A stretch of DNA of 64,000 nucleotides from an uncultured Geminicoccaceae bacterium (GCA_964504655.1 CAZDFD010000003.1:11979-75978); one strand, 5' to 3'; positions 5,127-58,663 are shown, counted from the stretch's first letter. Notes: generated by a model not told the origin, from the sequence alone. Program-made: numbers and translations.

Positions 5127-5285
5127 GCCCCGAGCGGCGGGACGGACGGCGGCCGGTGGACGCTCGGTCCCCCGCCGTGTAGGACGGCCGTGGAGGGGGC
5201 GCCCGGCCCGGCCGCGCTGGCGGTCGGCGCGCCGTCGCGACCGTGGCGCCGGGCCGGCGGTCGCTCCGCGCACGATGGTCGAGCG

Positions 5286-6002: not shown

Positions 6003-6090
6003 GCCCGGGCCCGCCGTCGTGGCCGCTGGCACGGCACCGCGAACCGGCTAGTGTGGCGCGGCCCGCGTCGCCCCGAGAGGCCGTCGCGCC

Positions 6091-7407
6091 ATGACCGCGC
6101 CCGCGCTCCTGCTCGCTGCCCCGATGACCGGCTCGGGCAAGACGATCGTGTGCCTGGCGCTGCTCGCGGCACTCGCCGGGCGCGGCCTGCGGGTCGGCTC
6201 GCTCAAGGTCGGCCCGGACTTCATCGATCCCTCCTTCCACGAGCGGGTGACCGGGCGGCCGTGCCACAATCTCGACAGCTGGGCGATGCGCTTCGCCACG
6301 CTCGTGGGGCTGCTCGAGGCGGCCGCCGAGGAAGTCGACATCGTCATCGGCGAGGGCATGATGGGGCTCGCCGACGGCGCCCCGGACGGCCGCGGCTCGA
6401 CCGGTGACCTCGCGGCCCTGCTCGGCATTCCTGTGGTGCTCGTGATCGACTGCGCCCGGCTCGGCGGCTCGGTGGCCCCGCTCGTCGAGGGCTTCCTGCG
6501 CTGGCGCGAGGAGGTCGAGATCGTCGGGCTCGTGCTCAACCGCGTCGGCGGCGAGGAGCACGCCCGGCTGCTCGCCCGGGCCTGCGAGGAGCGGTTCTCG
6601 ACCCGGATCCTCGGCTGGCTGCCCGAGGATCCCGAGCTCCTCCTGGAGAGCCGGCACCTGGGGTTGGTCCAGGCCGCCGAGCAGCCCCGCCTCGCGGCGA
6701 CGATCGAGCGGGCGGGGCTGCTCGCCGCGCGGCGGCTCGACCTCGACCGGATCGTCCGCCTGGCGCGCCCGCCGAGCCTCTCGGCGCTCGGCCGCGGCGC
6801 GCCGCCCTGGCCGCCGCTCGGTCAGCGCATCGCGCTCGCCCACGACGCCGCCTTCGGCTTCGCCTATGCGGCGGTGCTCGAGGGATGGCGCGCGGCCGGA
6901 TGCGAGCTGGTGGCGTTCTCGCCGCTCGCCGACGAGCCCCCGGATCCGACGGCCGATGCCGTGTTCCTGCCGGGCGGCTATCCCGAGCTGCACGCCCAAA
7001 GGCTCGCCGCGGCCGGCCGCTGGCGCGCCGGCCTCCGCGCCGCCGCCGCGCGCGGCGCCTTCGTCTACGGCGAGTGCGGCGGCTACATGGCGCTCGGCCG
7101 CGAGCTGGTCGACGCCGCCGGCACGGGCCACGCCATGGCCGGGCTCCTGCCGGTCACGGCGAGCCTCGCAGACCCCGACCCCCGGATCGGCTGGAGGCGC
7201 GTCGAGTTGGTCGAGGACGGGCCGCTCGGTCCGGCCGGCGTGGCCTACCGCGGCCACGAGTTCCACCTCGCGCGGATCGTCGGGCCGACCGACCGGCCGT
7301 TCGCGCTCGCCCGGGACGCGGCCGGACGCGAGCTCGGGCCGAGCGGCTGCCGAATCGGCCCGGTGGCCGGCTCGCCCGTCCACCTGATCGACCGCGAGGG
7401 CGGATGA
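6091..7407 (+). CDS. cobB: cobyrinate (hydrogenobyrinate) a,c-diamide synthase
   Basis: P-loop MTGSGKT, KVGPDFIDPSFH, and a C-terminal glutamine amidotransferase domain with GECGGYMALG. Confidence 0.9.
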   Translation: MTAPALLLAAPMTGSGKTIVCLALLAALAGRGLRVGSLKVGPDFIDPSFHERVTGRPCHNLDSWAMRFATLVGLLEAAAEEVDIVIGEGMMGLADGAPDGRGSTGDLAALLGIPVVLVIDCARLGGSVAPLVEGFLRWREEVEIVGLVLNRVGGEEHARLLARACEERFSTRILGWLPEDPELLLESRHLGLVQAAEQPRLAATIERAGLLAARRLDLDRIVRLARPPSLSALGRGAPPWPPLGQRIALAHDAAFGFAYAAVLEGWRAAGCELVAFSPLADEPPDPTADAVFLPGGYPELHAQRLAAAGRWRAGLRAAAARGAFVYGECGGYMALGRELVDAAGTGHAMAGLLPVTASLADPDPRIGWRRVELVEDGPLGPAGVAYRGHEFHLARIVGPTDRPFALARDAAGRELGPSGCRIGPVAGSPVHLIDREGG

Positions 7408-44690: not shown

Positions 44691-44770
44691 GCGCCGCGAC
44701 CGTTCGCGGGTTGTCTCCCCGGCCGGCGGTCGCCACAAGCTCGACCGAGGATGGGGGAAAGGGACCGAGC

Positions 44771-47482
44771 GTGGACGAGCGGGACGGGCGGTGCGCCGAG
44801 GAGCGGGCAGCGAGCTGGCACGCCGCCGAGCTAGAGGAATGCCTGCGCGCGCTCGGCAGCCGGCCGGAGGGGCTGAGCCCGGCGGAGGCCGAGGAGCGGC
44901 TCGCCCGCTTCGGCTTCAACCGGCTGCCCGAGCCGCCCCGCAAGGGGCCCTTGGTGCGGTTCCTCCTCCAGTTCCACAACCTCCTGATCTACGTGCTCCT
45001 GGTGGCGGCCGTCCTCTCGCTGCTCTTCGAGCATCCGGTCGACGCCGCGGTCATTCTGGGCGTCGTTCTGATCAACGCGGTCGTCGGGTTCGTCCAGGAG
45101 GGCAAAGCCGAGGCCGCGCTCGAGGCGATCCGCGGCATGGTCGACCCCAAGGCCTCGGTGCTGCGCGAGGGCCGGCGGCTCACCGTTCCGGCCGAGCGGG
45201 TGGTGCCGGGCGACGTCGTGCTCTTGGAAGCGGGCGATCGGGTACCGGCCGATCTGCGCTTGTTGCGCGCCAGGGGCCTCAGGATCGACGAGGCGATCCT
45301 GACCGGCGAGTCGGTCCCGGTCGACAAGAGCACGAACCCCGCGCCGCGGGAGGCGGCGCTCGGCGATCGACCCTGCATGGCGTTCTCCGGCACCTTCGTC
45401 GTCGCCGGGCAGGGCACGGGCGTGGTCGTTGCGACCGGTGCCGAGACCGAGCTCGGCAAGATCGGCAAGCTTCTGGGCCAGGTCGAGCGGCTCGAAACCC
45501 CGCTGTTGCGGCAGATGGCGGGCTTCGCCCGCACCCTCACGGTCGTGATCCTCGCGGTCTCCGCGGCCGCCTTTCCCTTCGCCTGGCTGGTCCAGGCCTA
45601 TCCGCTCGACCTTTCCTTCATGACGGTCGTCGGGCTCGCCGTCGCCGCCATCCCCGAGGGCCTGCCGGCGGTCATGACGATCACGCTCGCCATCGGCGTG
45701 CAGCGCATGGCCCGCCGCAACGCCATCATCCGCCGCCTGCCGGCGGTCGAGACCTTGGGCTCGGTCTCGGTCATCTGCTCGGACAAGACCGGCACGCTCA
45801 CCCGCAACGAGATGACCGTGCAGACGGTCCGCACCGCGTCGGCGCTCGCCCGCGTCTCCGGCAGCGGCTACGCCGCCGAGGGCGCGTTCTCGTCCGACGG
45901 TGCGCGGATCGACCCGCTCGCCGACCCGGTGCTGGCCGAGCTGATCGAGGGCGGCCTGCTCTGCAACGACGCCGAGGTCCGGCACGGCGAGGCTGGCTGG
46001 CTCGTCGACGGCGATCCGATGGAAGGCGCGCTCGTCACGCTCGCGATGAAGGCCGGTCTCGACCCGGCGACCGTGCGCAGGGACCTGGTGCGGCTCGACG
46101 AGATCCCCTTCGACAGCCGTCACCGGTTCATGGCGACACTGCACCGGAGCCCGGACGGCCACCGCTTCGTGATCGTCAAGGGCGCGCCCGAACGACTGCT
46201 CGAGATGTGCCGGACCGAGCGGACGACCGAAGGCGAGCGGCCCGTGGATGCCGCCTTCTGGCGGGCGGCGGCCGAGGAGCTGGCCGGCCGCGGTCAGCGG
46301 GTGCTGGCGCTCGCCCGCGCGCCGGCACCACCCGGCGACCGGCCGCTCGAGCCCCGGGACGTCGAGGGTGGCTGCGTGCTCGTGGGCCTCGTGGGCCTGA
46401 TCGACCCGCCGCGCGAGGAAGCGGTGGCGGCGGTCGCCGAATGCCACACGGCCGGCATCCGGGTCGTCATGATCACCGGCGACCACGCCACGACCGCCAA
46501 GGAGATCGCCCGCCAGCTCGGCATCGCCCGCGAGCCGTCGGTCGCGACCGGCAACGAGCTCGACGCGCTCGACGCCGAAGGCTTCCGGCGGGCCGCCCGG
46601 GAGGTCCACGTCTTCGCCCGCACCACCCCCGAGCACAAGCTGCGTCTGGTCGAGGCGCTGCAGGCGGATGGGCGGATCGTCGCCATGACCGGCGACGGGG
46701 TCAACGACGCGCCGGCCCTCAAGCGCGCCGACGTCGGTGTGGCGATGGGGATGAAGGGGACCGAGGCCGCCAAGGAGGCGGCCCAGATGGTGCTCGCGGA
46801 CGACAACTTCGCCTCGATCGTGGCGGCCGTGCGTGAGGGCCGCACGGTCTACGACAACCTCATGAAGGTCATCGGCTGGACTCTGCCCACCAACGGCGGC
46901 GAGGCCCTGACGATCCTGGCGGCGCTCGCCCTGGGCCTGGCCCTGCCCGTGACCCCGGTGCAGATCCTCTGGATCAACATGGTGACCGCGGTGGCGCTCG
47001 GCCTCACCCTGGCCTTCGAGCCGACCGAGCCCGGCACCATGCGCCGGCCGCCGCGGCCGGCCGACCGGCCGATCCTCTCGGGCGAGCTCGTCTGGCGCAT
47101 CCTCTTCGTCTCGGTGCTGTTCGTCTGCGGCGCCTTCGGCGTGTTCTACTGGGCCGACCTGCGCGGCGAGACGATCGAGGAGGCGCGGACCCTGGTCGTC
47201 AACACGATCGTCGTCATGGAGATCTTCTATCTCTTCAGCGTCCGCTACGTGCACGGCACCTCGCTCACCGTCGAGGGGCTCGTCGGCACGCCGGCGGTGC
47301 TGATCGGGGTGAGCGTGACCGTGCTCGCCCAGCTCGCCCTCACCTACCTCCCCTGGATGCAGTCCCTGTTCCAGACCCGCCCGGTCGGCCTGCTCGACGG
47401 GATCGTCGTGCTGGCGGTGGGTGTGGCCCTCCTGGTGCTCTGCGAGCTCGAGAAGCGGCTCCGCGCCCGGCTCCAGGGCTAG
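44771..47482 (+). CDS. cation-transporting P-type ATPase (type II, Ca/Mg-like)
   Basis: In-frame GTG 44771 within shadow ORF 43085..47482. Carries TGES, CSDKTGTLT, MITGD and TGDGVNDAPALKRADVGVAMG, with 10 TM segments. Confidence 0.9.
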   Translation: MDERDGRCAEERAASWHAAELEECLRALGSRPEGLSPAEAEERLARFGFNRLPEPPRKGPLVRFLLQFHNLLIYVLLVAAVLSLLFEHPVDAAVILGVVLINAVVGFVQEGKAEAALEAIRGMVDPKASVLREGRRLTVPAERVVPGDVVLLEAGDRVPADLRLLRARGLRIDEAILTGESVPVDKSTNPAPREAALGDRPCMAFSGTFVVAGQGTGVVVATGAETELGKIGKLLGQVERLETPLLRQMAGFARTLTVVILAVSAAAFPFAWLVQAYPLDLSFMTVVGLAVAAIPEGLPAVMTITLAIGVQRMARRNAIIRRLPAVETLGSVSVICSDKTGTLTRNEMTVQTVRTASALARVSGSGYAAEGAFSSDGARIDPLADPVLAELIEGGLLCNDAEVRHGEAGWLVDGDPMEGALVTLAMKAGLDPATVRRDLVRLDEIPFDSRHRFMATLHRSPDGHRFVIVKGAPERLLEMCRTERTTEGERPVDAAFWRAAAEELAGRGQRVLALARAPAPPGDRPLEPRDVEGGCVLVGLVGLIDPPREEAVAAVAECHTAGIRVVMITGDHATTAKEIARQLGIAREPSVATGNELDALDAEGFRRAAREVHVFARTTPEHKLRLVEALQADGRIVAMTGDGVNDAPALKRADVGVAMGMKGTEAAKEAAQMVLADDNFASIVAAVREGRTVYDNLMKVIGWTLPTNGGEALTILAALALGLALPVTPVQILWINMVTAVALGLTLAFEPTEPGTMRRPPRPADRPILSGELVWRILFVSVLFVCGAFGVFYWADLRGETIEEARTLVVNTIVVMEIFYLFSVRYVHGTSLTVEGLVGTPAVLIGVSVTVLAQLALTYLPWMQSLFQTRPVGLLDGIVVLAVGVALLVLCELEKRLRARLQG

Positions 47483-48936
47483 GCACCCCGGGGCTCGGCC
47501 TCCACGCCCGGGGTGACGAGCCGCTCCCGGGCGGCGCGCATGCAGCGGGCGACTTCGCCGGCCCGAACGAAGGCCGGGTCGGCCTCGAGCAGGGCCAACA
47601 GCGTGCGCGCCCGATCGGGCGGCAGCGGCGGTCCGCCGCCCGCCTCGAGGCGGGCCGGCGGCGGCGCGGCGCCGCCCGGCGCCGGATCGAAGCCACCCGC
47701 CTCCTCGGCGAGGCCCAGCCGCCCGCCCTCGCGCAGCTCCACGAGCTGGTCGAGCTGCCAGGCGGTGCGCAGCCCCTGCGCGCGCAGCCGCCGGTAGAGA
47801 TCGGGCTTGAGCTGGACCAGGAGGCAGGCCTGGCCGATCCAGTCGATCACCTGCGGCAGGCTGAACGGCGTCCTGAGCGTCAGATGCAGCGGGTTGGCCG
47901 CGACCAGGCCCTGCGCGTCGTGGATCCCGGCCTCGGCCAGCCGCACGCGCGTGTAGGCGTCGATGCCCTCGATCATTTCGAGCTCGAGCTCGTCGGCGCG
48001 CTGCTCGGCGCCGGCGCCGAACAGGCGGCGGGTCCGCCCGGCCAGCCAGCGCAGCGCCACCTCGGGCACGACGCCGGCGGCGAAGGCCACGAGCAGCACC
48101 GCGACCTCGTCCCAGCGCTGGGCGTTGTCGAGATCGCCCGGCACCAGGAGGATCTTGGTGTGGTAGACGAACAGGGCCACGATCGCGGCGCCCAGGAGGC
48201 GGAGCGCGATCGTCTGGTAGGCGTGGCCGGTGACGTCCCTGAGCGCCATCCGCCGCGAGAGGTAGGTGATCGACCAGAGGAGCGCGCCCAGGAATGCGAA
48301 GGCGAGGCAGAGGAGCGCGCCCGCCTGGTGGTCGACAAGGGCGCGCAGCACCTCGGGCGCGAGCGGCTCGCCGCCGAGCACGCCGCCCTGGGCCGCGAGC
48401 GGGCCGCCCAGGAGCAGGCTCGGCCGGCCGGCCAGATCGAGCCGATCGGCCGAGAAGGCGAGGAGGCCCAGCGCCAGGGCGAGCAGGACCGCCAGGAGGA
48501 AGGAGGGCAGCGAGACGTTCTTGAGGAAGGTCGGCTCCTCGATCCCCGTCTCGTAGTCCTCGATCCGGCTCTCCGGCCGCAGCCCCTGGCCGTCGCGGGT
48601 GAGGAACGGCCGCAGCGCCAGCGTGCCGCCCAGACGGTAGGCGAACGCCGCCTTGCGGAGCTCCTCGATGTCGGAGTTGGAGCCCAGCCGGCGGAACCAG
48701 CGCCCGACCACGAGCAGCGAGACCAGGGCGACCGAGAGGAGCGTGACGCCGGCCCAGGGCAGGCTGGTCGGATCGAGGCGGGCGGCCTCGCCGGGCGGAT
48801 GCCGCCACCACCACAGGAGGAACGCCGCGATCGGCCCACCGGCCAGGAGGACCGCCGAGACCACGGCACCGATCTCCATGCGACGGCCGATCTGCTCGCG
48901 CCGATCGGCGGGCCCGCGGAACCGGATGCCCCACAT
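47479..48936 (-). CDS. hypothetical polytopic membrane protein with C-terminal helix-hairpin-helix-like module
   Basis: Realistic composition and about 6 TM segments. The C-terminal MIEGIDAYTRVRLAEAGIHDAQGLV resembles HhH/DUF4332-type motifs. Start is uncertain (48936, 48879 or 48972). Confidence 0.6.
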   Translation of the reverse strand: MWGIRFRGPADRREQIGRRMEIGAVVSAVLLAGGPIAAFLLWWWRHPPGEAARLDPTSLPWAGVTLLSVALVSLLVVGRWFRRLGSNSDIEELRKAAFAYRLGGTLALRPFLTRDGQGLRPESRIEDYETGIEEPTFLKNVSLPSFLLAVLLALALGLLAFSADRLDLAGRPSLLLGGPLAAQGGVLGGEPLAPEVLRALVDHQAGALLCLAFAFLGALLWSITYLSRRMALRDVTGHAYQTIALRLLGAAIVALFVYHTKILLVPGDLDNAQRWDEVAVLLVAFAAGVVPEVALRWLAGRTRRLFGAGAEQRADELELEMIEGIDAYTRVRLAEAGIHDAQGLVAANPLHLTLRTPFSLPQVIDWIGQACLLVQLKPDLYRRLRAQGLRTAWQLDQLVELREGGRLGLAEEAGGFDPAPGGAAPPPARLEAGGGPPLPPDRARTLLALLEADPAFVRAGEVARCMRAARERLVTPGVEAEPRGA

Positions 48937-49008
48937 CGCCGTCACCCCCGGCCGCTCGCGTCGCGCGAGCACGACAGCAAGGATTCTACGCCTCGGGCGT
49001 TCGTCCGC

Positions 49009-49509
49009 CTAGGGGGCCGGGCGATCCTCGCCCTGGTCGAGCTCGGCCGCCCGAGCGAAGGCCGGCCCGGACAGGGCGTGCGCCAGGATCGGCTCGCGGA
49101 CGGCGCCGAGCGCGCGGTAGAAGGCGTTGGCCGGCTCGTTCCAGGGCTTCGAGCACCACCAGAGGAAGCTCAGCCCACGGGCGCGGGCGTGCGCGGCGCA
49201 GGCCGCCAGGAGCCGCCGCCCGACGCCCTGGCGGCGCGCCTCCGGCACCACGTAGAGGTCGATCAGGTAGGCGCCGCGAGCCGCCCACTCGCTGGCGTAG
49301 CTCGGCTCGAGGAAGGCGTAGCCGACGAGCGTGCCGTCGCGCTCGGCCACGAGCGCGTCGAAGGCACGGCCGGGGCCGAGCCCGTCGCGCGCCAGCGCCG
49401 CCGCGTCCAGATGCTCGGTGGGCTCGCCCACGAGGGCGTTGAGATGGGCGGCCATGGCCACGACGGCCTCGACGTCGCGCGGCTCGGCGGCGCGGACGGT
49501 GATCGGCAC
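49009..49509 (-). CDS. GNAT-family N-acetyltransferase
   Basis: GTG 49509 with a GGAGGA RBS. Motif A reads VVPEARRQGVGRRLL, followed by NEPANAFYRALG. Confidence 0.8.
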   Translation of the reverse strand: MPITVRAAEPRDVEAVVAMAAHLNALVGEPTEHLDAAALARDGLGPGRAFDALVAERDGTLVGYAFLEPSYASEWAARGAYLIDLYVVPEARRQGVGRRLLAACAAHARARGLSFLWWCSKPWNEPANAFYRALGAVREPILAHALSGPAFARAAELDQGEDRPAP

Positions 49510-49591
49510 GGCGGATCCTCCGCGAGACCGTGGCGCCCTGCGGCCCGGGCCTCTAGGCTCGAGGGAACGCCGCAACCGGAACAGGCCAGCC

Positions 49592-49936
49592 ATGCCCGAG
49601 CCCGTCAACCCGCAGAAGCTCAACCCGCTGCAGCTCAAGACGCTCGCCATCCTGCAGGCGCTCGCCGAGGAGCCGGCGTTCGCCGATCCGCCGGACGGCC
49701 AAGGCACGGTGCGGATCCGCGCCCTGCCGCACGCACACGGCGACCATTTCCACATCGGCGGCCGGGTGGTGCTCGCCCGGGACGCAACCGGGCTGGCCAA
49801 CCCCAACGTCTACAACGTGCTGGCCCGCAAGGGCCTGATCCTGGCCGGGCCGGCCGGCGAGCCGGTGCTGACCGCGGCGGGCCGCACCTATGCGACCGGG
49901 GTCGCGGCCGCCGTCCTGCACACCACCGGCCATTGA
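49592..49936 (+). CDS. hypothetical protein (114 aa)
   Basis: ATG 49592 within ORF 49331..49936. Third codon positions are nearly all G/C and the composition is non-shadow-like. I recognise no family. Confidence 0.6.
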   Translation: MPEPVNPQKLNPLQLKTLAILQALAEEPAFADPPDGQGTVRIRALPHAHGDHFHIGGRVVLARDATGLANPNVYNVLARKGLILAGPAGEPVLTAAGRTYATGVAAAVLHTTGH

Positions 49937-50027
49937 GGCCGCGGCCACCTGCCACAGTGGCCTTGGATCCGTCACATCCGGCTGGTAGCTTGATCTACTC
50001 GGTATTGCAGGACGCTCGGCAGGCACC

Positions 50028-51437
50028 GTGACGGACATGATCGAGAATCGAACCTTCGAGGAGATCGCGATCGGCGAGAGCGCGAGCCTCGAGAAGGCGA
50101 TCACGCGCGAGGACATCGAACTCTACGCCGCCGTCTCGGGTGACGCCAATCCGACCCATCTGGACGAGGAGTTCGCGGCCAAGAGCCCGTTCAAGGGCGT
50201 GATCGCGCACGGCATGCTCACCGCCGGGCTGATCTCCAACCTGCTCGGCAACCGCCTGCCCGGACCGGGCACGATCTATCTGGGCCAGGACCTGCGCTTC
50301 CGCCGCCCGGTGCGCGCCGGCGACGTCGTCAAGGTGACCGTGACCGCCCGGGAGAAGCGCCCGGAGAGGAGCGTCGTGGTGTTCGACTGCCTGTGCGCCA
50401 ACCAGCGCGGCGAGGCGGTCCTCACCGGCACCGCCGAGGTGATCGCGCCCCGGGAGAAGGTCCGCCGCGAGGCCGCGACCCTGCCCGAGATCACCGTCCA
50501 CCGCCACGCCAAGTACGAGCGGCTGATCGAGCGCGCCGCCGAGATCCCGGCGGTCGCCTGCGCGGTCGCCCACCCCTGCGATGCGAGCTCGCTCCAGGGC
50601 GCGCTGGAGGCCACCGCCAAGGGCATGATCGTGCCGATCCTGGTCGGCCCCGTGGCCAGGATCCGCCGCATCGCCGAGGCGGAGGGCGTCTCCCTCGACG
50701 GCGTCGAGCTGATCGACGTGCCGCACAGCCACGCCGCCGCCGCCAAGGCGGTCGAGCTCGTGCGCGCCGGCCGCGCCGAGCTCCTCATGAAGGGCTCGCT
50801 GCACACCGACGAGCTGATGGCCGAGGTCGTGGCGCGCGAGACCGGGCTTCGCACCGAGCGGCGCATCAGCCACGTCTTCATCATGGACGTGCCCACATAT
50901 CCCGAGCCGCTGTTCATCAGCGATGCCGCGATCAACATCGCCCCCGACCTCGAGACCAAGCGCGACATCGTGCAGAACGCGATCGACCTGCACCGTGGCC
51001 TCGGCCTCGGCGAGCCGCGCGTGGCGATCGTCTCGGCGGTCGAGACCGTGACCCCCAAGATCCCCGGCACGATCGAGGCCGCGGCCCTCTGCAAGATGGC
51101 CGAGCGCGGCCAGATCACCGGCGGGCTCCTGGACGGGCCCTTGGCGCTCGACAACGCGATCAGCCCGGAGGCGGCGCGGATCAAGGGCATCCGCTCGGAG
51201 GTGGCGGGCCGCGCCCAGATCCTGATCGTGCCCGACCTCGAGGCCGGCAACATGCTGGCCAAGAACCTGTCCTTCCTGGCCGGTGCCGACGCCGCCGGCG
51301 TGGTGCTCGGCGCGCGCGTCCCGATCGTCCTCACGAGCCGGGCCGACACGGTGCGCACCCGGCTCGCCTCGGCGGCGGTGGCCGCCCTCTACGCGCACGC
51401 CCGGCGCACCGCCCTCCCGGTCAAGGCGGCGGAGTAG
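50028..51437 (+). CDS. pta: bifunctional MaoC-like enoyl-CoA hydratase / phosphate acyl(acetyl/butyryl)transferase
   Basis: N-terminal hot-dog domain (SGDANPTHLDEEFA..GVIAHGML), followed by a PTA_PTB domain (AHPCD, LMKGSLHTDELM, VPDLEAGNMLAKNL). Confidence 0.88.
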   Translation: MTDMIENRTFEEIAIGESASLEKAITREDIELYAAVSGDANPTHLDEEFAAKSPFKGVIAHGMLTAGLISNLLGNRLPGPGTIYLGQDLRFRRPVRAGDVVKVTVTAREKRPERSVVVFDCLCANQRGEAVLTGTAEVIAPREKVRREAATLPEITVHRHAKYERLIERAAEIPAVACAVAHPCDASSLQGALEATAKGMIVPILVGPVARIRRIAEAEGVSLDGVELIDVPHSHAAAAKAVELVRAGRAELLMKGSLHTDELMAEVVARETGLRTERRISHVFIMDVPTYPEPLFISDAAINIAPDLETKRDIVQNAIDLHRGLGLGEPRVAIVSAVETVTPKIPGTIEAAALCKMAERGQITGGLLDGPLALDNAISPEAARIKGIRSEVAGRAQILIVPDLEAGNMLAKNLSFLAGADAAGVVLGARVPIVLTSRADTVRTRLASAAVAALYAHARRTALPVKAAE

Positions 51438-51443
51438 GCGGCC

Positions 51444-52637
51444 TTGGCCGACACCATCCTCGTCGTCAACGCCGGCAGCTCGTCGATCAAGTTCGAGCTG
51501 TTCGAGGTCGGCCCGGGCGACCTCCTGACGAGCCGGCTCGAGGGCCAGATCGAGGGCATCGGGGTGCGGCCACGGCTGGTGGCCGCCGGAGCCGACGGCC
51601 GGAGCCTCGCCGACGAGCACTTCGAGGCCGCCCGGGTCGCCGACGTCGAGGCCGCCCAGGGCGTGGTCGGCGCCTGGCTCGAGCAGCGGCTCGAGCGGCC
51701 GCCGCTCGCGATCGGCCACCGCGTCGTGCACGGCGGGCCCGACTACGCCCGGCCGGTCCGGCTCGAAGCCCGCGTGCTGGCCGATCTCGAGCGACTCGTG
51801 CCGCTCGCACCCCTGCATCAGCCGAACAACCTGGCGCCGATCCGGGCACTCCTCCGCCGGAGCCCGGAGTTGCCGCAGGTCGCCTGCTTCGACACCGCCT
51901 TCCACCGTGGCCATCCGGAGCTCGCCGACCGTTTCGCCATCCCCGAGGCGCTGCACGCGGAGGGCATCCGCCGCTACGGCTTCCACGGCCTGTCCTACGA
52001 GTACGTCGCCGGTCGGCTGCCCGAGCTGGCACCCGAGCTCGCCCGCGGCCGGGTGATCGTCGCGCATCTGGGCTCGGGCTGCTCGATGTGCGCCCTGCGC
52101 GGCGGCCGCTCGATCGAGAGCACCATGGGCTTCACCGCGCTCGACGGGCTGCCGATGGGCACGCGGCCGGGCCAGCTCGACGCCGGCGTGGTGCTGCACC
52201 TGTTGACCGCCAAGGGCATGGACGCCGCTTCGATCGAGCGCTTCCTCTACCACGAGTGCGGGCTCAAGGGGCTCTCCGGCATCTCCAACGACGTCCGGGT
52301 CCTGCTCGCGAGCGACGATCCCCGCGCCAAGCGCGCGCTCGACTTCTTCACCTACAAGATCGCCCAGATGACCGGCTGGCTGGCCGCCGCGCTCGAGGGT
52401 CTGGACGGCTTCGTGTTCACCGCCGGCATCGGCGAGAACGCGCCCACCGTGCGCGAGGCGGTGGCGCACCGGCTGGGCTGGCTCGGCCTCCGCCTCGACC
52501 CCTACGCCAACGGCGCCGGGGAGACGGTGATTTCGACCCCGGGCTCGCGGGTGCAGGTCCTCGTGATCCCGACCGACGAGGAGCTGATGATCGCCCGCCA
52601 CACGCTGCGCCTGCTGCGCGGCTCCACGGCCGGCTGA
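51444..52637 (+). CDS. ackA: acetate/propionate-family kinase
   Basis: Carries [42 protein letters not shown] and FTAGIGEN. Confidence 0.9.
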
Positions 52638-52651
52638 CAGGGGAGACCGTC

Positions 52652-53431
52652 GTGCTCGACCCCAAGCTCACCACGCTCGCCGGCAAGCGCGGCCTCGTGA
52701 CCGGCATCGCCAACGACCGCTCGATCGCCTGGGGCTGCGCCAAGGCGTTCCGCGGGCTGGGCGCCGAGCTCGCCGTCACCTACCTGAACGACAAGGCCAA
52801 GCCGTTCGTCGAGCCGCTCGCAGAGCGGCTCGAGTCGCCGATCCTGATGCCGCTCGACCTCCGGGTCGAGGGCCAGCTCGAGGCGGTGTTCGCGCGGCTC
52901 GAGAAGGACTGGGGCCGGCTCGACTTCCTGCTGCACTCGATCGCCTTCGCGCCGCGGGACGACCTCCACGGCCGGGTGGTCGACTGCTCGCGGGACGGCT
53001 TCCTGCAGGCGATCGACATCTCCTGCTGGTCGTTCATCCACATGGCCAAGCTCGCCGAGCCATTGATGACGGACGGCGGGGCACTGTTCTGCATGACCTA
53101 TTACGGCTCGCAGATGGTGATCGAGAACTACGGCATCATGGGCCCGGTCAAGGCGGCGCTCGAGTGCGCGACCCGCTATCTCGCGGCCGAGCTCGGCCCC
53201 AAGGGGATCCGCGTGCACGCCATCTCGCCCGGGCCGCTCGAGACCCGCGCCGCCTCGGGCATCCCGGAGTTCGACGAGCTCCTGCACAAGGCGCAGGAGA
53301 AGGCACCGGTGCGCAGCCTGGTCTCGATCGACGATGTCGGCCTCGCCACCGCCTATCTGGCGACCGACGCCGCGCGCCTGATCACCGGCAATGTCGTCTA
53401 TGTCGACGGCGGCTACCACATCATCGACTGA
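52652..53431 (+). CDS. fabI: enoyl-[acyl-carrier-protein] reductase (NADH), FabI type
   Basis: GTG with a GGGGAG RBS. Carries GLVTGIANDRSIAWG, LLHSIAFAP, YYG...MGPVKAALE and AISPGPLETRAAS. Confidence 0.9.
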   Translation: MLDPKLTTLAGKRGLVTGIANDRSIAWGCAKAFRGLGAELAVTYLNDKAKPFVEPLAERLESPILMPLDLRVEGQLEAVFARLEKDWGRLDFLLHSIAFAPRDDLHGRVVDCSRDGFLQAIDISCWSFIHMAKLAEPLMTDGGALFCMTYYGSQMVIENYGIMGPVKAALECATRYLAAELGPKGIRVHAISPGPLETRAASGIPEFDELLHKAQEKAPVRSLVSIDDVGLATAYLATDAARLITGNVVYVDGGYHIID

Positions 53432-53461
53432 GCCGGCGGACCGGCTCGGGGGGAGACTCCG

Positions 53462-55681
53462 ATGGCTGAGAAGCGCCCGGCGGGTGGCGGGGTGGCGAAC
53501 GACGGGCCGTTCGCCTGGGCCGAGCCCTGGGCCGGAGCCTGGGTCGACGCGGTCCAGCGCTCGATCCTGTTCCTGGACACGCTGCGCCGGCGCGGCAACG
53601 AGCACCTCGAGCACGTCGCCAAGCCGGTCCCGCACGTGCTCTCCTTCACGGGCAAGCTCGTGGTCGACGGCCGCACGCTCGCCCGACCGGTCAATTACGG
53701 GGTGGTCGCGATCGACCCGCCCGAGGGGGTCGAGATCGACCAGCGCAAGCGGCCGTTCGTGGTGGTCGACCCGCGCGCCGGGCACGGGCCCGGGATCGGC
53801 GGGTTCAAGGCCGACAGCGAGATCGGCGTGGCGCTGCGGGCCGGCCATCCCTGCTACTTCGTGGGCTTCACCCCCGAGCCGATGCCCGGCCAGACGATCC
53901 CGGACGTGCTCGAGGCCTGCGCGCTGTTCCTCGAGGCGGTGATCGCCCGCCACCCCGAGGCCGAGGGCCTGCCCTGCGTGGTCGGCAACTGCCAGGCGGG
54001 GTGGATGATGGCGATGCTGGCGGCGCTGCGGCCGGAGCTGTTCGGGCCGTTGATCCTGGCCGGCTCGCCGCTCTCCTACTGGGCCGGCGTGCACGGGGTG
54101 AACCCGATGCGCTACTCGGGCGGGCTCCTCGGCGGGAGCTGGCTCGCGGCACTCGCCTCCGACCTCGGCCACGGGCGGTTCGACGGCGCGCATCTGGTCG
54201 CCAACTTCGAGAGCCTGAACCCGGCCAACGCGCTCTGGACCAAGCAGTACGATCTCTGGTCCAAGATCGACACCGAGGCGCCGCGCTATCTGGGATTCGA
54301 GCGCTGGTGGGGCGGCCACGTGCTGCTCAACGCCGAGGAGATCCAGTTCATCGTCGACGAGCTGTTCATCGGCAACCGGCTGGCCACCGGCGAGATCGTC
54401 CTGGCGGACGGCCGGCGCATCGATCTGCGCGCCATCCGCTCGCCGGTCCTCTGCTTCTGCTCGAAGGGCGACGACATCACCCCGCCGCAGCAGGCGCTCG
54501 GGTGGATCACCGACCGCTACGAGCACGACCGGGACATCGTCGCCGCCGGGCAGACGATCGTCTACGCCATCCACGACAGCGTCGGCCATCTGGGCATCTT
54601 CGTCTCCGGCAAGGTGGTCGGCAAGGAGCACCGCGAGTTCGCCTCCAACATCGACATGATCGACTGTCTGCCGCCCGGCCTCTACGAGGCGGTGATGCTC
54701 CGCAAGGACGAGCTGACCCCGAACCCCGAGCTGGTCGAGGGCGACTATGTCGTGCGCTTCGAGCGCCGCTCGCTCGACGACCTGCGGGCGCTCGGCGGCA
54801 ACGACCTCGAGGACGAGCGCCGGTTCGCGGCGGTCGCCCGCCTCTCGGAGGTCAATCTCGGGCTCTACCGCCGCTTCCTGCAGCCCTACGTGCGGGCGAT
54901 GGCGAGCGAGGAGAGCGCGTCGGCTCTGCGGGAGCTGCACCCCGCCCGCCTGCAGTACACCCTGTTCTCCGACCGCAACCCGTTCCTCCGCCCGATCGCC
55001 GAGCTCGCCGAGCGGGTCCGGGCCGAGCGCCGGCCGGCCGAACCGGGCGATCCCCTGGTCGCCGCCCGCGACCAGCTCGCGCGGGTCGTGGCGAGCGGCC
55101 TCGAGACCTGGGGCGAGCTGCGCGACCAGATGGTCGAGGCCACCTTCCACGCCGTCTACGGCTCGCCCCTCGTGCAGGCGTTGGCCGGGCTCGACGGGCG
55201 TGCGGCGCCGCCCCGGCGGCGGCCCGGGCGCGAGCCCGAGGAGGCGGCGCTGGTGCGCGAGCGGATCGCCCGGCTGCGCGAGCGGATCGGCGAGGGCGGC
55301 CTGCGCGAGGCGGTGATCCGCGCCGTGGTGTGGATCGGCATGGCCGACCGCCTCGCCGACGAGCGCGGCTTCGCGGTCGTGCGGGCGGTCCGCGAGAGCC
55401 TGCCGGACCGCCCACCCCTGGCCGCGTTCAAGGCCGCCCTGCGCGAGCAGTTCCTGATGATCCTGCTCGACGAGGAGGCGGCGCTCGACGCCCTGCCGAG
55501 GCTGGTCGGGACGGCGCCGGAAGACCGCGCCCGGGCGCTCGAGGTGATCCGCAGGATCGCCGCCGCGCCGGGCGTCCCGGAGGGCTTGAAGGCGGAGCGG
55601 CTCGCGCGCATCGAGGCGATCTTCGCGCCGCCCGAGGAGCAGGAGCCCCGTGTCCGACGCGTGCAGGGAGGAAAGCGATGA
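53462..55681 (+). CDS. DUF3141-like alpha/beta-hydrolase-fold protein with PHA-synthase-like Cys box
   Basis: 739 aa. N-terminal QRSILFLDTLRRRGNEHLEH...RPVNYGVVAI, then VVGNCQAGW (Cys codon 53990-53992), a later SKGDDITPP, and VGHLGIFVSG. Confidence 0.8.
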   Translation: MAEKRPAGGGVANDGPFAWAEPWAGAWVDAVQRSILFLDTLRRRGNEHLEHVAKPVPHVLSFTGKLVVDGRTLARPVNYGVVAIDPPEGVEIDQRKRPFVVVDPRAGHGPGIGGFKADSEIGVALRAGHPCYFVGFTPEPMPGQTIPDVLEACALFLEAVIARHPEAEGLPCVVGNCQAGWMMAMLAALRPELFGPLILAGSPLSYWAGVHGVNPMRYSGGLLGGSWLAALASDLGHGRFDGAHLVANFESLNPANALWTKQYDLWSKIDTEAPRYLGFERWWGGHVLLNAEEIQFIVDELFIGNRLATGEIVLADGRRIDLRAIRSPVLCFCSKGDDITPPQQALGWITDRYEHDRDIVAAGQTIVYAIHDSVGHLGIFVSGKVVGKEHREFASNIDMIDCLPPGLYEAVMLRKDELTPNPELVEGDYVVRFERRSLDDLRALGGNDLEDERRFAAVARLSEVNLGLYRRFLQPYVRAMASEESASALRELHPARLQYTLFSDRNPFLRPIAELAERVRAERRPAEPGDPLVAARDQLARVVASGLETWGELRDQMVEATFHAVYGSPLVQALAGLDGRAAPPRRRPGREPEEAALVRERIARLRERIGEGGLREAVIRAVVWIGMADRLADERGFAVVRAVRESLPDRPPLAAFKAALREQFLMILLDEEAALDALPRLVGTAPEDRARALEVIRRIAAAPGVPEGLKAERLARIEAIFAPPEEQEPRVRRVQGGKR

Positions 55682-56106
55682 GCGGACTGGTGACGCCGGC
55701 CGATCTCAAGCGGATCGCCGAGGAGCAGGAGACCGCGAAGCTGCAGGAGGCGCTCGAGCGCAAGCGCCGCCACGAGGAGGAGGAGCGCAGGTTCTACGAG
55801 GACTTCATGAGCCGCGAGCCGCAACCGGACGCGCTCGAGCGCTTCAACGCCGTCGTCTCGCGCGCCGCGGCGAGCGGCCTCAGCGAGGTCAAGGTGATGG
55901 AGTTCCCGGCCTCCTGGTGCACCGACGGCGGCCGGGCCATCAACAATTTCGAGGAGAGCTGGCCGGAGACGCTGCAGGGCTGGGCAAAGAACGCCTACGC
56001 CTACTTCAAGCAGCATCTCGAGGGGTCGGGCTACAAGGTGCGCGCCCAGATCCTCAACTACCCGGACGGCAATTTGGGCACGGTCGGGATCTTCGTCTCG
56101 TGGTGA
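55678..56106 (+). CDS. hypothetical protein (142 aa), translationally coupled to the DUF3141 gene
   Basis: ATGA overlap and a GGAGGAAAG RBS. Charged helical N-terminus (EEQETAKLQEALERKRRHEEEERRFYEDF) and a globular C-terminus. Confidence 0.65.
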   Translation: MSGLVTPADLKRIAEEQETAKLQEALERKRRHEEEERRFYEDFMSREPQPDALERFNAVVSRAAASGLSEVKVMEFPASWCTDGGRAINNFEESWPETLQGWAKNAYAYFKQHLEGSGYKVRAQILNYPDGNLGTVGIFVSW

Positions 56107-56167
56107 GCCGGGCCGGACCGCCGCTGCCGGCGGCCGGCCGCCCGGCTCGGGCCGGGGCGGGCCGGGT

Positions 56168-56956
56168 GTGACGCTCGCCGACCGCATGCGGCCCGAGCCG
56201 GGCCGGCGGGTCCTCGTGACCGCCGGGGCCGCCGGCATCGGCCTCGCCGTCGCCCGCGCCTTCGCCGAGGTCGGCGCGCGCGTGCTCGTGTGCGACGTCG
56301 ACGAGGCGGCCCTCGCGGCCCTCCCGTCCGAGCCGCCGGCGATCCGCGGCGTGCCCTGCGACGTGGCCGAGGAGGCGGAGGTCGCGCGGCTGTTCGGCGA
56401 GGTCGAGGCGTGGCTCGGCGGGCTCGACGTGCTGGTCAACAACGCCGGCATCGCCGGGCCGACCGGCGGCGTGGCGGAGATCGCCCCGGCCGACTGGCGG
56501 CGGACGCTGGACGTGAACATCACCGGAATGTTCCTCTGCACGAGGTTGGCCGTGCCCCTACTCCGCAAGGCGGAGGAGCCGGCGATCATCAACCTTTCGT
56601 CGGTGGCCGGCCGGCTCGGCTACGCCTATCGGACCCCCTACGCCGCCTCGAAATGGGCGGTCGTCGGGTTCACCTCGAGCCTCGCCAAGGAGCTCGGGCC
56701 CGAGGGCATCCGCGTCAACGCGCTGCTGCCCGGCGTGGTCCGGGGCGAGCGGATCGAGCGGGTGTTCGCCGAGCGCGCCCGCACGCTCGGCGTGCCGGTC
56801 GAGGAGGTGCGGCAGGGCTATCTCCAGAAGGTCTCGCTGCGGCGGATGGTCGAGCCCGAGGACATGGCCGCCATGGCCCTCTTCCTGTGCTCGCCCGCCG
56901 GCCGCCACGTGCACGGCCAGGCGCTCTCGATCTGCGGCAACGTCGAGACGATCTGA
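56168..56956 (+). CDS. short-chain dehydrogenase/reductase (SDR)
   Basis: Carries VLVTAGAAGIGLAVA, NNAGIAG, and YAASKWAV (YxxxK). Confidence 0.85.
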   Translation: MTLADRMRPEPGRRVLVTAGAAGIGLAVARAFAEVGARVLVCDVDEAALAALPSEPPAIRGVPCDVAEEAEVARLFGEVEAWLGGLDVLVNNAGIAGPTGGVAEIAPADWRRTLDVNITGMFLCTRLAVPLLRKAEEPAIINLSSVAGRLGYAYRTPYAASKWAVVGFTSSLAKELGPEGIRVNALLPGVVRGERIERVFAERARTLGVPVEEVRQGYLQKVSLRRMVEPEDMAAMALFLCSPAGRHVHGQALSICGNVETI

Positions 56957-56960
56957 GCCC

Positions 56961-57626
56961 TCAGACCGGCGCCGCCGGCCCGGCCCGAAAGCCCGTCGCG
57001 AGCAGGTAGATCTCCGAGGACTCGGCCCGCGTCGCCCGGGGCCGCAGCAGCCGATGGCCGGCGAACCGCGCCCGCACGCCCGGCAGGATCCTGGCCTCGG
57101 CACCCTTGAGCAGCTTGAGCAGGCAGGCGCCGCCCGGGGCGAGCGCGCGCCCGGCCAGATCGAGCACCGCCTCGGCCACCGCCTCCGAGCGCAGCCGGTC
57201 GACCTCGCGCACGCCCGTGGCGTTCGGCGCCACGTCCGAGAGCAGGAGGTCGGCCGGGCCGCCGAGCAGCTCCAGGAGGCGGGCCTCGATCCCGGGATCG
57301 GTGAAGTCGCCGCGGACGAGATCGGCACCCGGCAGCGGCTGCATCTCGAGCAGGTCGCAGGCCACCACCCGGCAGCCCTTCTGCAGGGCGTACTGGGTCC
57401 AGCTCCCGGGTGCGGCACCCAGGTCCAGGACCCGCAGCCCGCGGCGCAGCAGGCCGTGGCGGCGGTCGATCTCCTCGAGCTTGAAGACCGAGCGGGCGCG
57501 GAAGCCGCGCCGGCGCGCCTCGGCCACGTAGGGATCGGCGAGCTGGCGGGCGAGCCAACGGGTCTGCCTGGCGGTCCGCCCGGCCCGCGGCCGCGGCCGC
57601 TCGCCGCCGCCGCGCGGCGCCCTCAT
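56961..57626 (-). CDS. rlmE: 23S rRNA (uridine-2'-O)-methyltransferase RlmE/FtsJ
   Basis: ATGA overlap with the ppx stop. Carries WLARQLADPYV..A...G.RARSVFKLEEID, DLGAAPGSWTQY, SDVAPN and LLKLLKG. Confidence 0.9.
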   Translation of the reverse strand: MRAPRGGGERPRPRAGRTARQTRWLARQLADPYVAEARRRGFRARSVFKLEEIDRRHGLLRRGLRVLDLGAAPGSWTQYALQKGCRVVACDLLEMQPLPGADLVRGDFTDPGIEARLLELLGGPADLLLSDVAPNATGVREVDRLRSEAVAEAVLDLAGRALAPGGACLLKLLKGAEARILPGVRARFAGHRLLRPRATRAESSEIYLLATGFRAGPAAPV

Positions 57627-58663
57627 GCCGCGGCCTGGCCCCGGAGCGCGTCCCGGAGCGAGCCGCCCATGAGCGCCGCCAGGATGCCCTCGCGCAGCCC
57701 GCGGTCGGCGACCCTCAGGCTCTCGACCGGGACCATCCGGTGCACCGCGTCGAGGATCGCGCAGCCGGCCACCACGAGGTCGGCCCGGCCCTGGCCGATG
57801 CAGGGATGCGCGGCGCGGGCGGCGTTGTCGATCGCACGCAGCCCCTCGGCCACGCTGCGGATCACCGCGAACGGCAGCCGCAGCCCGTCGACCTTGCTGC
57901 GGTCGTAGCGACGCAGGCCGATGTGCAGCGCCGCGAGCGTGGTGACCGTGCCCGAGGTTCCGAGCATCTCGACCGTGGCGCCGTTCAGGCCGGCGCAGAG
58001 CGGCCCGTCCCGGCCGAGCGCCCTGAGCCGGCCGTGCACGTGCTCGACCATCCGACCGTAGGTCGGCGGATCGATGTCGCGGCCGTAGGTCTCGGCGAGC
58101 GTGACCACGCCCAGCGGCAGCGACAGGGCGGTGCCGGGCTCGTCGTCGGCGGGGTCCGCCCGCCGGTCGAGCCACAGCAGGTCGGTGGACCCGCCGCCGA
58201 TGTCGACCACGAGGAGCTGGTCGGCCGCCGGGTCGGCCAGCGGCAGGCACCCCAGCATGGCCAGCCGCGCCTCCTCCTCGTGCGCCAGGATCTCGAGCTC
58301 GAGGCCGGTCACCCGCCGCACCCGGCGCAGGAAGTCGGCGCCGTTGGCGGCCCGCCTGCAGGCCTCGGTGGCGACGCAGCGGGCCGCCGCCACCCGGTGG
58401 CGGGCGATGATCCGGGCGCACACCTTGAGGGCTGCGAGCGTGCGCGCCATGGCCGGCTCGGACAGCCGCTCGCGCCGCGACAGCCCCTCGCCCAGCCGCA
58501 CGATGCGCGAGAAGCTGTCGACCACGGTCGAGCCCTCGACCCCGACCTCGACCACGAGCAGCCGGCAATTGTTGGTGCCGAGGTCGAGCGCCGCCAGCCG
58601 GTCGCCCGGCCTCGGGGCGAAGCGGCGCGCGGGAAGGGTGTCGGGCTCGGCCGTCGGGTGCAT
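57623..58663 (-). CDS. ppx: Ppx/GppA-family phosphatase
   Basis: Carries AALDLGTNNCRLLV, VATEACRRAANG, DIGGGSTDL and GTSGTVTTLA. Confidence 0.88.
   Translation of the reverse strand: MHPTAEPDTLPARRFAPRPGDRLAALDLGTNNCRLLVVEVGVEGSTVVDSFSRIVRLGEGLSRRERLSEPAMARTLAALKVCARIIARHRVAAARCVATEACRRAANGADFLRRVRRVTGLELEILAHEEEARLAMLGCLPLADPAADQLLVVDIGGGSTDLLWLDRRADPADDEPGTALSLPLGVVTLAETYGRDIDPPTYGRMVEHVHGRLRALGRDGPLCAGLNGATVEMLGTSGTVTTLAALHIGLRRYDRSKVDGLRLPFAVIRSVAEGLRAIDNAARAAHPCIGQGRADLVVAGCAILDAVHRMVPVESLRVADRGLREGILAALMGGSLRDALRGQAAA

Follow-up and report, generated by a model that had tools for sequence, protein, structure and literature searches.

Positions 50,028 to 56,106 of a 64,000-nucleotide stretch of DNA (the window) from an uncultured Geminicoccaceae bacterium (GCA_964504655.1 CAZDFD010000003.1:11979-75978) hold five tightly packed open reading frames (ORFs) on the + strand. 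These encode a MaoC–PTA fusion, an acyl kinase (AckA), an enoyl reductase of the FabI type, a DUF3141 protein resembling the polyhydroxyalkanoate (PHA) synthase PhaC, and a protein of 142 aa, here called small142. The fusion (50028..51437; 469 aa; PF01575 and PF01515, NF006045) is followed by AckA, of the acetate/propionate family (51444..52637; 397 aa; PF00871, TIGR00016), by the operon-type FabI of the PRK07533 clade (52652..53431; 259 aa; NF005717), by the DUF3141 protein (53462..55681; 739 aa; PF11339) and by small142 (55678..56106), which overlaps the DUF3141 stop. Successive gaps are 6, 14 and 30 nt and then a 4-nt ATGA overlap, which joins the DUF3141 stop to the small142 start and has a GGGAGGAAAG ribosome site just 5′. 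An earlier note on this DNA had described five co-directional genes with these gaps and the ATGA overlap; coordinates and spacing were re-derived identically, and the gene identities given there are upheld by Pfam and NCBIfam matches, with the 142-aa ORF left without a family.

With a GC content of ~73%, the window is of a kind in which long spurious ORFs are common. GC by codon position picks out the real frames, and third-position GC is at least 0.9 in all five operon genes. A 715-aa ORF at 47884-50031, overlapping the start of the first operon gene, was rejected as a low-complexity GC artefact. The first gene itself may begin at ATG 50037 instead of GTG 50028, because its relatives align from residue 5. 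The 6/14/30-nt spacing, the 4-nt overlap and the lack of terminator-like sites are compatible with a single predicted transcript, no intrinsic terminator having been found in a scan of 49300-57700. GC-rich hairpins 3′ of small142 and 5′ of the first gene were set aside, since their stability equalled that of shuffled sequence (z −0.27 and −0.10, respectively).

The first protein scores 742 bits against NF006045, a ‘bifunctional enoyl-CoA hydratase/phosphate acetyltransferase’, with the hydratase at residues ~5-150 and the phosphotransacylase at residues ~160-465. The hydratase motif SGDANPTH is found in the MaoC domain, for which the nearest solved structure is PhaJ (5cpg, 135 bits). Among solved structures, the PTA domain (PF01515, 144 bits; NF008852, 522 bits) comes closest to a phosphate butyryltransferase (7vg9, 225 bits), with other acyl or branched-chain phosphotransacylases next and true Pta structures at only 36-68 bits. 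Scores against the Ptb equivalog models lie under their cut-offs (NF004472, 317 bits against 399; TIGR02706, 309 bits against 410). Judged from these matches, the phosphotransacylase is predicted to be butyryl-type and the MaoC domain PhaJ-type. AckA scores 343 bits against PF00871 and 335 bits against TIGR00016, which places it, as far as family models go, in the acetate/propionate kinase family and not in the butyrate kinase family. As expected for a module of this type, a PTA_PTB phosphotransacylase of the short kind (~310 aa) is directly followed on its own strand by an AckA-family kinase, here after 6 nt, and both are the sole homologues of their kind in the genome. Fusion of MaoC to PTA occurs in several unrelated lineages, and it can therefore be argued that the substrates of the two domains are metabolic neighbours.

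The operon FabI scores 448.6 bits against NF005717 (cut-off 337) and 287 bits against PF13561, and its Tyr-x6-Lys catalytic pair is present as NYGIMGPVK. A housekeeping FabI, 50% identical to it, is encoded on contig C84, and genomes with the operon type were found to carry the housekeeping type also; the operon FabI is a dedicated extra paralogue. The two types were compared using 57 operon-type sequences (that of the window and 56 FabI encoded next to DUF3141) and 19 housekeeping sequences. The signature GIPEFD of the operon enzyme stands against GIGDFR in the housekeeping enzyme, with G(I/L)xxFD in 57/57 and GI(G/S)DFR in 19/19; Asp is present in all 57 where Arg is invariant in the 19. In E. 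coli FabI, the basic residues that dock acyl carrier protein (ACP) are K201, R204 and K205, and the invariant housekeeping Arg is presumably R204. This fixed Arg-to-Asp change suggests that the substrate of the operon FabI may not be acyl-ACP but, for example, an enoyl-CoA. A paper on FabI1 and FabI2 of Sinorhizobium meliloti concerns two other FabI genes and, to judge by its text, holds no data on the operon type (PMC11616126).

The DUF3141 protein matches PF11339 at 907.5 bits over profile positions 1-581 of 582 and consists of a PhaC-like alpha/beta-hydrolase core followed by a C-terminal helical region of ~300 aa. The nucleophile box reads GNCQAG, and a comparison of 29 diverse sequences showed no variation at C177, D337 or H376; the protein thereby has the G-x-C-x-G box and the conserved Asp and His that mark PHA synthases. 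An AlphaFold (AF2) model has a mean predicted local distance difference test score (pLDDT) of 75, with low confidence in the loop around His376, and its best fold matches in the PDB are PHA synthases from Chromobacterium, Aeromonas and Cupriavidus (E 9e-7 to 2e-5; target template-modelling score 0.4-0.5). All curated PhaC models are failed, with 32.6 bits for the class III model TIGR01836 (cut-off 365) and 19.3 bits for TIGR01838 (cut-off 623), and PF11339 is the sole match in a Pfam scan, with no PhaC_N. Having neither these matches nor a depolymerase domain, the protein appears, from sequence and model alike, to be PhaC-like but to lie outside the known PhaC classes. The family is large: its sequences in the protein collection fall into over 8000 clusters when grouped at 90% identity, and members are at least 60% identical across classes. 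The label ‘PhaC-like’ and the connection to PHA proposed previously are backed by the sequence motif, by the fold and by co-occurrence with canonical PhaC (below).

For small142, neither Pfam nor NCBIfam provides a family, and a fold search of the PDB gave no match (best E 0.5). Its AF2 model (pLDDT 82) combines a compact alpha/beta domain with an N-terminal helix that is long and charged. Homologues adjoin DUF3141 in 25/80 loci of other species, on either side and on either strand, and comparison within the genus showed small142 to be gained or lost together with DUF3141. The gene layout predicts translational coupling to DUF3141, of which small142 appears to be a conserved partner. In two other genera of the family, two tandem small142 paralogues lie between DUF3141 and MaoC/PTA (L014, G011:C8; L015, G020:C11), and in G011 a canonical PhaC (PhaC_N match C8:150420-150929) lies immediately 5′ of DUF3141.

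Conservation of the gene set was examined at 80 DUF3141 loci (L053-L132) from different GTDB species, among them Alpha-, Beta- and Gammaproteobacteria, Desulfobacterales, Smithella, Nitrospiraceae, Rokubacteria and Acidobacteriaceae, with a neighbour radius of 9 kb; 50 of these loci have at least 4-5 kb on both sides. Within 9 kb, 45 of the 50 have at least one of Ptb-like PTA, AckA and operon-type FabI, and 33 have all three, with small142 present at 19. Most often the genes run [small142] DUF3141-PTA-AckA-FabI, but the order is permuted in many ways, including FabI divergent upstream and, in Desulfobacterales, AckA-FabI-DUF3141-MaoC/PTA. DUF3141 beside a phosphotransacylase is the most conserved adjacency, and separate look-ups found DUF3141-PTA-AckA in Nitrospira, Thiodictyon and Contendobacter. 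Genes that stay together through such rearrangement give good evidence of a functional link. The earlier note had named a failure of the genes to be co-conserved as a result that would refute its proposed route; they kept together, Pta, AckA or FabI being retained at 45/50 loci. The locus is a rearranged member of a widespread DUF3141-pta-ackA-fabI module and not a new gene set. What is new here is the gene order with the MaoC fusion, the two extra conserved small proteins (small142 and orfU, described below) and a series of cassette gains and losses.

Other neighbours of DUF3141 also recur among the 80 loci: PPK2 (26), GNAT proteins (16), SulP transporters (15), CRP/FNR regulators (9), 3-oxoacid CoA-transferase subunits (8-9) and pyruvate formate-lyase with its activase (7). 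The recurrence of PPK2 suggests a link between polyphosphate and the module. PPK2 is often directly beside small142, as at L112:7456-8298 (−; PF03976, 321 bits). No phasin gene is recurrent in these neighbourhoods.

In an even sample of 300 Pseudomonadota genomes, DUF3141 was found in 21 (~7%), and all 21 have a canonical PhaC, compared with 148/279 genomes without DUF3141 (Fisher p = 3e-6, a value that ignores kinship and is overstated because relatives are not independent). Canonical PhaC was likewise found in 53/54 genomes reached through DUF3141 loci. The window genome carries three canonical PhaC genes and, on C74, a weak PF06850 (PhaZ) match, its only one, and the genus of the host appears to be one of aerobic PHA accumulators.

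Within the genus, eight other genomes show the order P-type ATPase, orfU, MaoC/PTA, AckA, FabI and then a short-chain dehydrogenase/reductase (SDR), convergent with ppx; one of these loci, that of G006, ends at a contig edge. Where DUF3141 and small142 are present, they form a cassette between FabI and the SDR. This cassette is intact in the window genome (G000) and in G004, lies in G006 on a contig that ends inside DUF3141, and is absent from G001, G003, G005, G008 and one of two G002 loci. In G007 (L025, C18 ~4873-7034, −), frameshifts split DUF3141 into six pieces, and at least two TGA stops interrupt it; the gene, which lies beside intact small142, FabI, AckA and MaoC/PTA, resembles a pseudogene in a lineage that is losing the cassette. 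A tree of MaoC/PTA and AckA groups G000 with G004 and places all cassette-free loci and the pseudogene in a sister clade, and the divergence of the cassette equals that of its flanks. On the simplest reading of these sequences, the ancestor of the genus already had the cassette, which then decayed or was lost in one clade. From this pattern, DUF3141 and small142 travel as a pair. The five genes, described in the earlier note as a tight operon, are not one indivisible unit: DUF3141 and the small ORF are an accessory cassette, missing in 5/9 copies of this locus in the genus, with Pta-AckA-FabI-SDR kept. G002 has two MaoC/PTA-AckA loci (C333, L041; C299, L027), of which one is syntenic and without DUF3141; the other, divergent (~63% identical), carries DUF3141 and probably arrived by horizontal transfer.

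The unit is probably larger than five genes, with orfU upstream and the SDR downstream. orfU (49592..49936, +) encodes 114 aa with a His-rich patch and has no Pfam or NCBIfam match. In seven same-genus locus copies (68-85% identity) it immediately precedes MaoC-PTA and shares its strand, the G006 contig being too short to display orfU or the SDR, and in another genus (L044) a copy at 54% identity lies 7 kb from the operon-type FabI. Probably orfU opens the conserved unit, or else it is served by a promoter of its own. The SDR, a FabG-like ketoreductase (56168..56956, +), starts 61 nt 3′ of small142 and matches the FabG subfamily model NF009466 at 249 bits; 3-hydroxybutyrate dehydrogenase models give 181 bits, below their cut-offs, and the closest solved structure is 5unl, an uncharacterised ‘3-ketoacyl-ACP reductase’. 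In seven same-genus copies the SDR comes after FabI or after the DUF3141 cassette (76-90% identity) and closes the cluster conserved in the genus, but it is not recurrent among DUF3141 neighbours in other genera.

For regulation, alignment of eight same-genus loci showed one conserved block in the 91-nt spacer before MaoC-PTA, a promoter-like element CTTGG, ~17-19 nt, TAG (49961..49989, +), which we take to resemble the alphaproteobacterial CTTG-N17-CTA type of promoter. A sigma-70 consensus scan of 49300-57700 found nothing and did not pick up this element. No convincing direct repeat of the PHO-box kind was recognised in the 91-nt spacer by inspection by eye. Among the 80 DUF3141 loci, a perfect TTGA-N6-TCAA box (FNR/FixK/Anr type) lies within 450 nt 5′ of DUF3141 in 30, with ~2 expected from the background density of 0.025 per 450 nt in the same loci (binomial p ~1e-27). 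The loci with boxes are mostly from Bradyrhizobium, Ensifer/Rhizobium and Xanthobacteraceae, with some Betaproteobacteria.

Upstream of the unit lies a P-type cation ATPase, type IIA-like (44693..47482, +; Pfam E1-E2_ATPase, Cation_ATPase_N/C), for which the top NCBIfam models are Ca-type, every one below its cut-off. It lies directly 5′ of orfU within the genus, and P-type ATPases adjoin DUF3141/Pta/AckA in other genera (L016, L018); it may be functionally linked to the operon. A GNAT acetyltransferase and a 497-aa membrane protein without a family (47479-49455, −) intervene between the ATPase and orfU. Both are present, among the examined loci, only in the window genome and G004 (L026), and in the other same-genus loci with a visible junction the ATPase is followed directly by orfU. 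On the downstream side, a ppx-rlmE pair (56961-58663, −) is convergent with the operon. The RlmE/FtsJ-type rRNA methyltransferase, from 56961 to ~57600 (−), is encoded 3′ of ppx, and a misleading ORF of 586 aa shares its frame. A convergent ppx-rlmE pair is a common housekeeping arrangement, and the neighbouring ppx was for this reason set aside as a probably incidental link to polyphosphate.

Several known systems resemble the locus. An orfA-pta-ackA-fabI operon of S. meliloti is said to have been described by Summers, Denton and McDermott (1999, J Bacteriol 181:2217). According to a later review, the ORF-pta-ack-fabI operon of that species is transcribed as one unit, and phosphate starvation induces it by way of PhoB (PMC8231600, citing Summers 1999). 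DUF3141-pta-ackA-fabI is annotated on replicons of Sinorhizobium and Ensifer, where the DUF3141 protein is 58-60% identical to that of the window, and because the gene order matches we infer that orfA of S. meliloti is the DUF3141 gene. The Sinorhizobium pta-ackA operon mentioned in the earlier note appears to be the same module (replicon annotation, PMC8231600), and the gene set is already in the literature (PMC8231600, PMC3721108), the cluster having been described since 1999. The same four families share one transcription unit in S. meliloti, but in the order DUF3141-PTA-AckA-FabI, whereas the window has MaoC/PTA-AckA-FabI-DUF3141, a PTA with an N-terminal MaoC, the additional orfU, small142 and SDR, and no PHO box recognised by eye.

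Burkholderia sensu lato contains ‘group D phaC’ clusters (phaC-pta-ack-fabI-phaB, phaC/phaJ::pta/ackA), which have been read as PHA synthesis genes; group D PhaC is only 2-24% identical to the S. meliloti ORF (PMC8231600), and the likeness to the window is one of gene content. At the lxa locus of B. cenocepacia J2315, low oxygen induces PHA synthase 224-fold, phosphate acetyl/butyryl transferase 116-fold, acetoacetyl-CoA reductase 94-fold, acetate kinase 75-fold and a cation ATPase 15-fold (PMC3721108). An lxa mutant has fewer viable cells after anoxia, and PHA was proposed by those authors as an electron sink (PMC3721108). Shared by lxa or group D clusters and the window are a PhaC-type gene, a phosphotransacylase (in some cases fused to PhaJ), an acetate kinase, a FabI, a PhaB-like reductase and a cation P-type ATPase; unlike lxa, the window is without universal stress proteins, an Anr-type regulator and FNR-type boxes. 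In a B. diazoefficiens phaR mutant under microoxia, blr3455-3459 (two hypotheticals, pta, ackA2 and fabI) and the MaoC-like nodN bll3460 are up 4-9-fold, and phaC2 is derepressed together with the blr3455-3459 cluster.

For the chemistry of the individual steps, the comparison is with anaerobes. The clostridial butyrate branch comprises Hbd-Crt-Bcd/Etf-Ptb-Buk, and anaerobes dismutate crotonate or 3-hydroxybutyrate to acetate and butyrate. This branch, which leads from 3-hydroxybutyryl-CoA by way of crotonyl-CoA, butyryl-CoA and butyryl phosphate to butyrate with gain of ATP, is the same chemistry as that proposed below, and a Ptb-like phosphotransacylase is common to it and the window; an (R)-specific MaoC/PhaJ stands in place of crotonase, an NADH-dependent FabI in place of Bcd/Etf and an AckA-family kinase in place of Buk. 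PhaZa1 of Ralstonia eutropha reportedly mobilises polyhydroxybutyrate (PHB) thiolytically (Uchino, Saito and Jendrossek 2007). An alpha/beta-hydrolase with a Cys-Asp-His site, PhaZa1 splits native PHB with CoA and yields 3-hydroxybutyryl-CoA, conserving the energy of the ester bond; it would be a precedent for DUF3141, which in contrast is without PHB_depo_C and, among the models and solved structures compared, nearer the synthases by sequence and fold. A literature search yielded no biochemical characterisation of DUF3141, the operon FabI or the set as a whole.

A relative of PHB polymerases is thus joined to enzymes for converting C4 CoA esters to acid plus ATP, and the operon therefore probably helps the cell to gain energy and shed excess electrons under stress. 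The reading we favour, to which we give a rough probability of 0.45, is a stress fermentation branch on the (R)-3-hydroxyacyl-CoA pool, which would take PHB to butyrate and acetate with formation of ATP. In this scheme, DUF3141 with small142 would cleave stored PHB by CoA thiolysis at the Cys-Asp-His site to give (R)-3-hydroxybutyryl-CoA, which the PhaJ-like MaoC domain would dehydrate to crotonyl-CoA. The dedicated FabI would reduce crotonyl-CoA with NADH to butyryl-CoA, serving as electron sink and thermodynamic pull; the butyryl-type phosphotransacylase domain would then form the acyl phosphate, and AckA would convert this to ATP and the free acid. An oxidative branch, from 3-hydroxybutyryl-CoA through acetoacetyl-CoA to two acetyl-CoA, would share Pta-AckA, such that two C4 units would yield butyrate, two acetates and ~three ATP, redox-balanced and without an external electron acceptor. 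Since the FabI step is practically irreversible, it would set the direction, from hydroxyacyl-CoA to saturated acid, and it could pull an otherwise unfavourable CoA thiolysis of polyester. Thiolytic action of DUF3141 is a tentative element of the scheme, and, because the core operates without the protein in sister species, DUF3141 would be an optional feeder step. The FNR boxes, pyruvate formate-lyase, PPK2 and P-type ATPases of relatives, together with lxa induction and survival, fit a role in ATP making and electron disposal when respiration fails. The butyryl-type PTA, the Arg-to-Asp change in FabI and the co-occurrence with PhaC, read from sequence, may sharpen this into a testable hypothesis.

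A number of observations weigh against this reading. The S. meliloti enzymes were reportedly measured, by Summers in 1999, as acetate kinase and phosphotransacetylase. Acetyl activities are likewise the only ones known to have been measured for this operon type (PMC8231600, citing Summers 1999). AckA scores only 43-75 bits against butyrate-kinase models, below their cut-offs, and a MaoC domain is fused or adjacent in only 4/50 of the loci with adequate flanks. For DUF3141, PHA synthases outrank generic hydrolases in the fold search, its nearest relatives thus being synthases, and no depolymerase domain (PF06850 / PHB_depo_C) was detected in it. The ACP-docking role of the Arg replaced in the operon FabI is a presumed one. 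From the gain and loss pattern in the genus, the Pta-AckA-FabI-SDR core works without the cassette, and one Nitrospiraceae metagenome-assembled genome (G041, L061), the exception among the 54, has DUF3141-PTA-AckA with no PhaC detected by PhaC_N or class III models. Finally, TTGA-N6-TCAA is absent from the whole window, with none upstream of the operon at up to two mismatches, and no PhaR-type CTGC-N3-GCAG lies near the operon, the one match in the window, at 1140, being fewer than chance expects.

The alternative that survives best, which we nevertheless consider unlikely, is that the module runs toward storage, with DUF3141 and small142, as a PhaE/PhaR-like subunit, forming a stress-induced alternative PHA synthase. 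Acetyl-CoA would then be split, part passing through Pta-AckA to acetate and ATP and part being reduced and polymerised as an electron sink, and MaoC and FabI would make butyryl-CoA for more reduced C6 monomers or for butyrate. The kinship of DUF3141 to PHA synthases in both fold and sequence favours this direction, as does a small, translationally coupled partner like those of class III and IV synthases. Co-derepression of phaC2 in the B. diazoefficiens phaR mutant points the same way, and so do the co-induction of PHA synthase and acetoacetyl-CoA reductase with Pta and AckA at lxa, with its authors' electron-sink proposal (PMC3721108), and the interpretation of the cluster as PHA synthesis in the Burkholderia review (PMC8231600). 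However, 74/75 DUF3141 genomes already possess one or more canonical synthases, the window genome three, and DUF3141 itself falls far short of the PhaC models (33 bits against 365) and lacks PhaC_N. The adjacency of DUF3141 and phosphotransacylase fits a product-to-substrate relation better than competition for the same acyl-CoA, and no phasin recurs nearby.

Quite improbable, in our estimate, is acid activation driven by ATP or polyphosphate, in which acetate, 3-hydroxybutyrate or butyrate would pass through AckA and phosphotransacylase into polyester via DUF3141, as in engineered Buk-Ptb-PhaC or the anaerobic phase of polyphosphate- or glycogen-accumulating bacteria. Pta-AckA is reversible, as is generally known, and PPK2 is found in 26/80 DUF3141 neighbourhoods; close homologues are numerous in Competibacter, Contendobacter, Defluviicoccus and Dechloromonas, but this excess of wastewater taxa may reflect database composition. 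PhoB control of the S. meliloti operon under phosphate stress, as given in the review (PMC8231600), would also agree with it, but FabI, conserved as much as AckA, has no role in such a route. The FNR/FixK boxes and pyruvate formate-lyase neighbours indicate a shortage of energy, when storage at the expense of ATP would be costly, and the ppx of the window, in its convergent ppx-rlmE pair, is probably incidental.

Ordinary acetate overflow with passengers, in which Pta-AckA would do no more than form acetate together with ATP or acetyl phosphate, with FabI as a surplus enzyme of fatty-acid synthesis and DUF3141 as an unrelated thioesterase, acyltransferase or hydrolase not acting on PHA, is very improbable: it agrees with acetate kinase and phosphotransacetylase being the only activities known to have been measured for the operon type (PMC8231600), with the operon holding the genome's sole Pta-AckA pair, with the NCBIfam label of FabI as an enoyl-ACP reductase equivalog and with persistence of the core in sister species without DUF3141, but four-gene linkage over many lineages and orders is hard to get by chance, the operon FabI forms a clade with a fixed Arg-to-Asp change that is always alongside a housekeeping FabI, and the MaoC-PTA fusions, the butyryl-type PTA and the restriction of DUF3141 to PhaC-positive genomes are left unexplained.

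PHB is usually regarded as a store of carbon and electrons that needs respiration to be useful. In the fullest form of the fermentation reading, which is possible but doubtful, DUF3141 and small142 would be a thiolytic PHA-mobilising enzyme or a reversible synthase that keeps the polyester bond in the form of 3-hydroxyacyl-CoA. Through a dedicated FabI reducing enoyl-CoA and a butyryl-type phosphotransacylase with its kinase, stored PHB would be fermented internally to butyrate and acetate with a net yield of ATP, providing an unrecognised form of anaerobic maintenance in ‘aerobes’. The occurrence of intact, frameshifted and deleted cassettes in one genus is a natural experiment that makes the question tractable. 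If true, the proposal would give functions to a large DUF family (over 8000 sequence clusters), as well as to a dedicated FabI clade and a partner protein that is still unnamed. It would also mean that such maintenance exists in ~7% of the sampled Pseudomonadota genomes and in several other lineages, and would account for the survival of many bacteria from soil and wastewater, and of many plant-associated ones, when oxygen is absent or nutrients run short.

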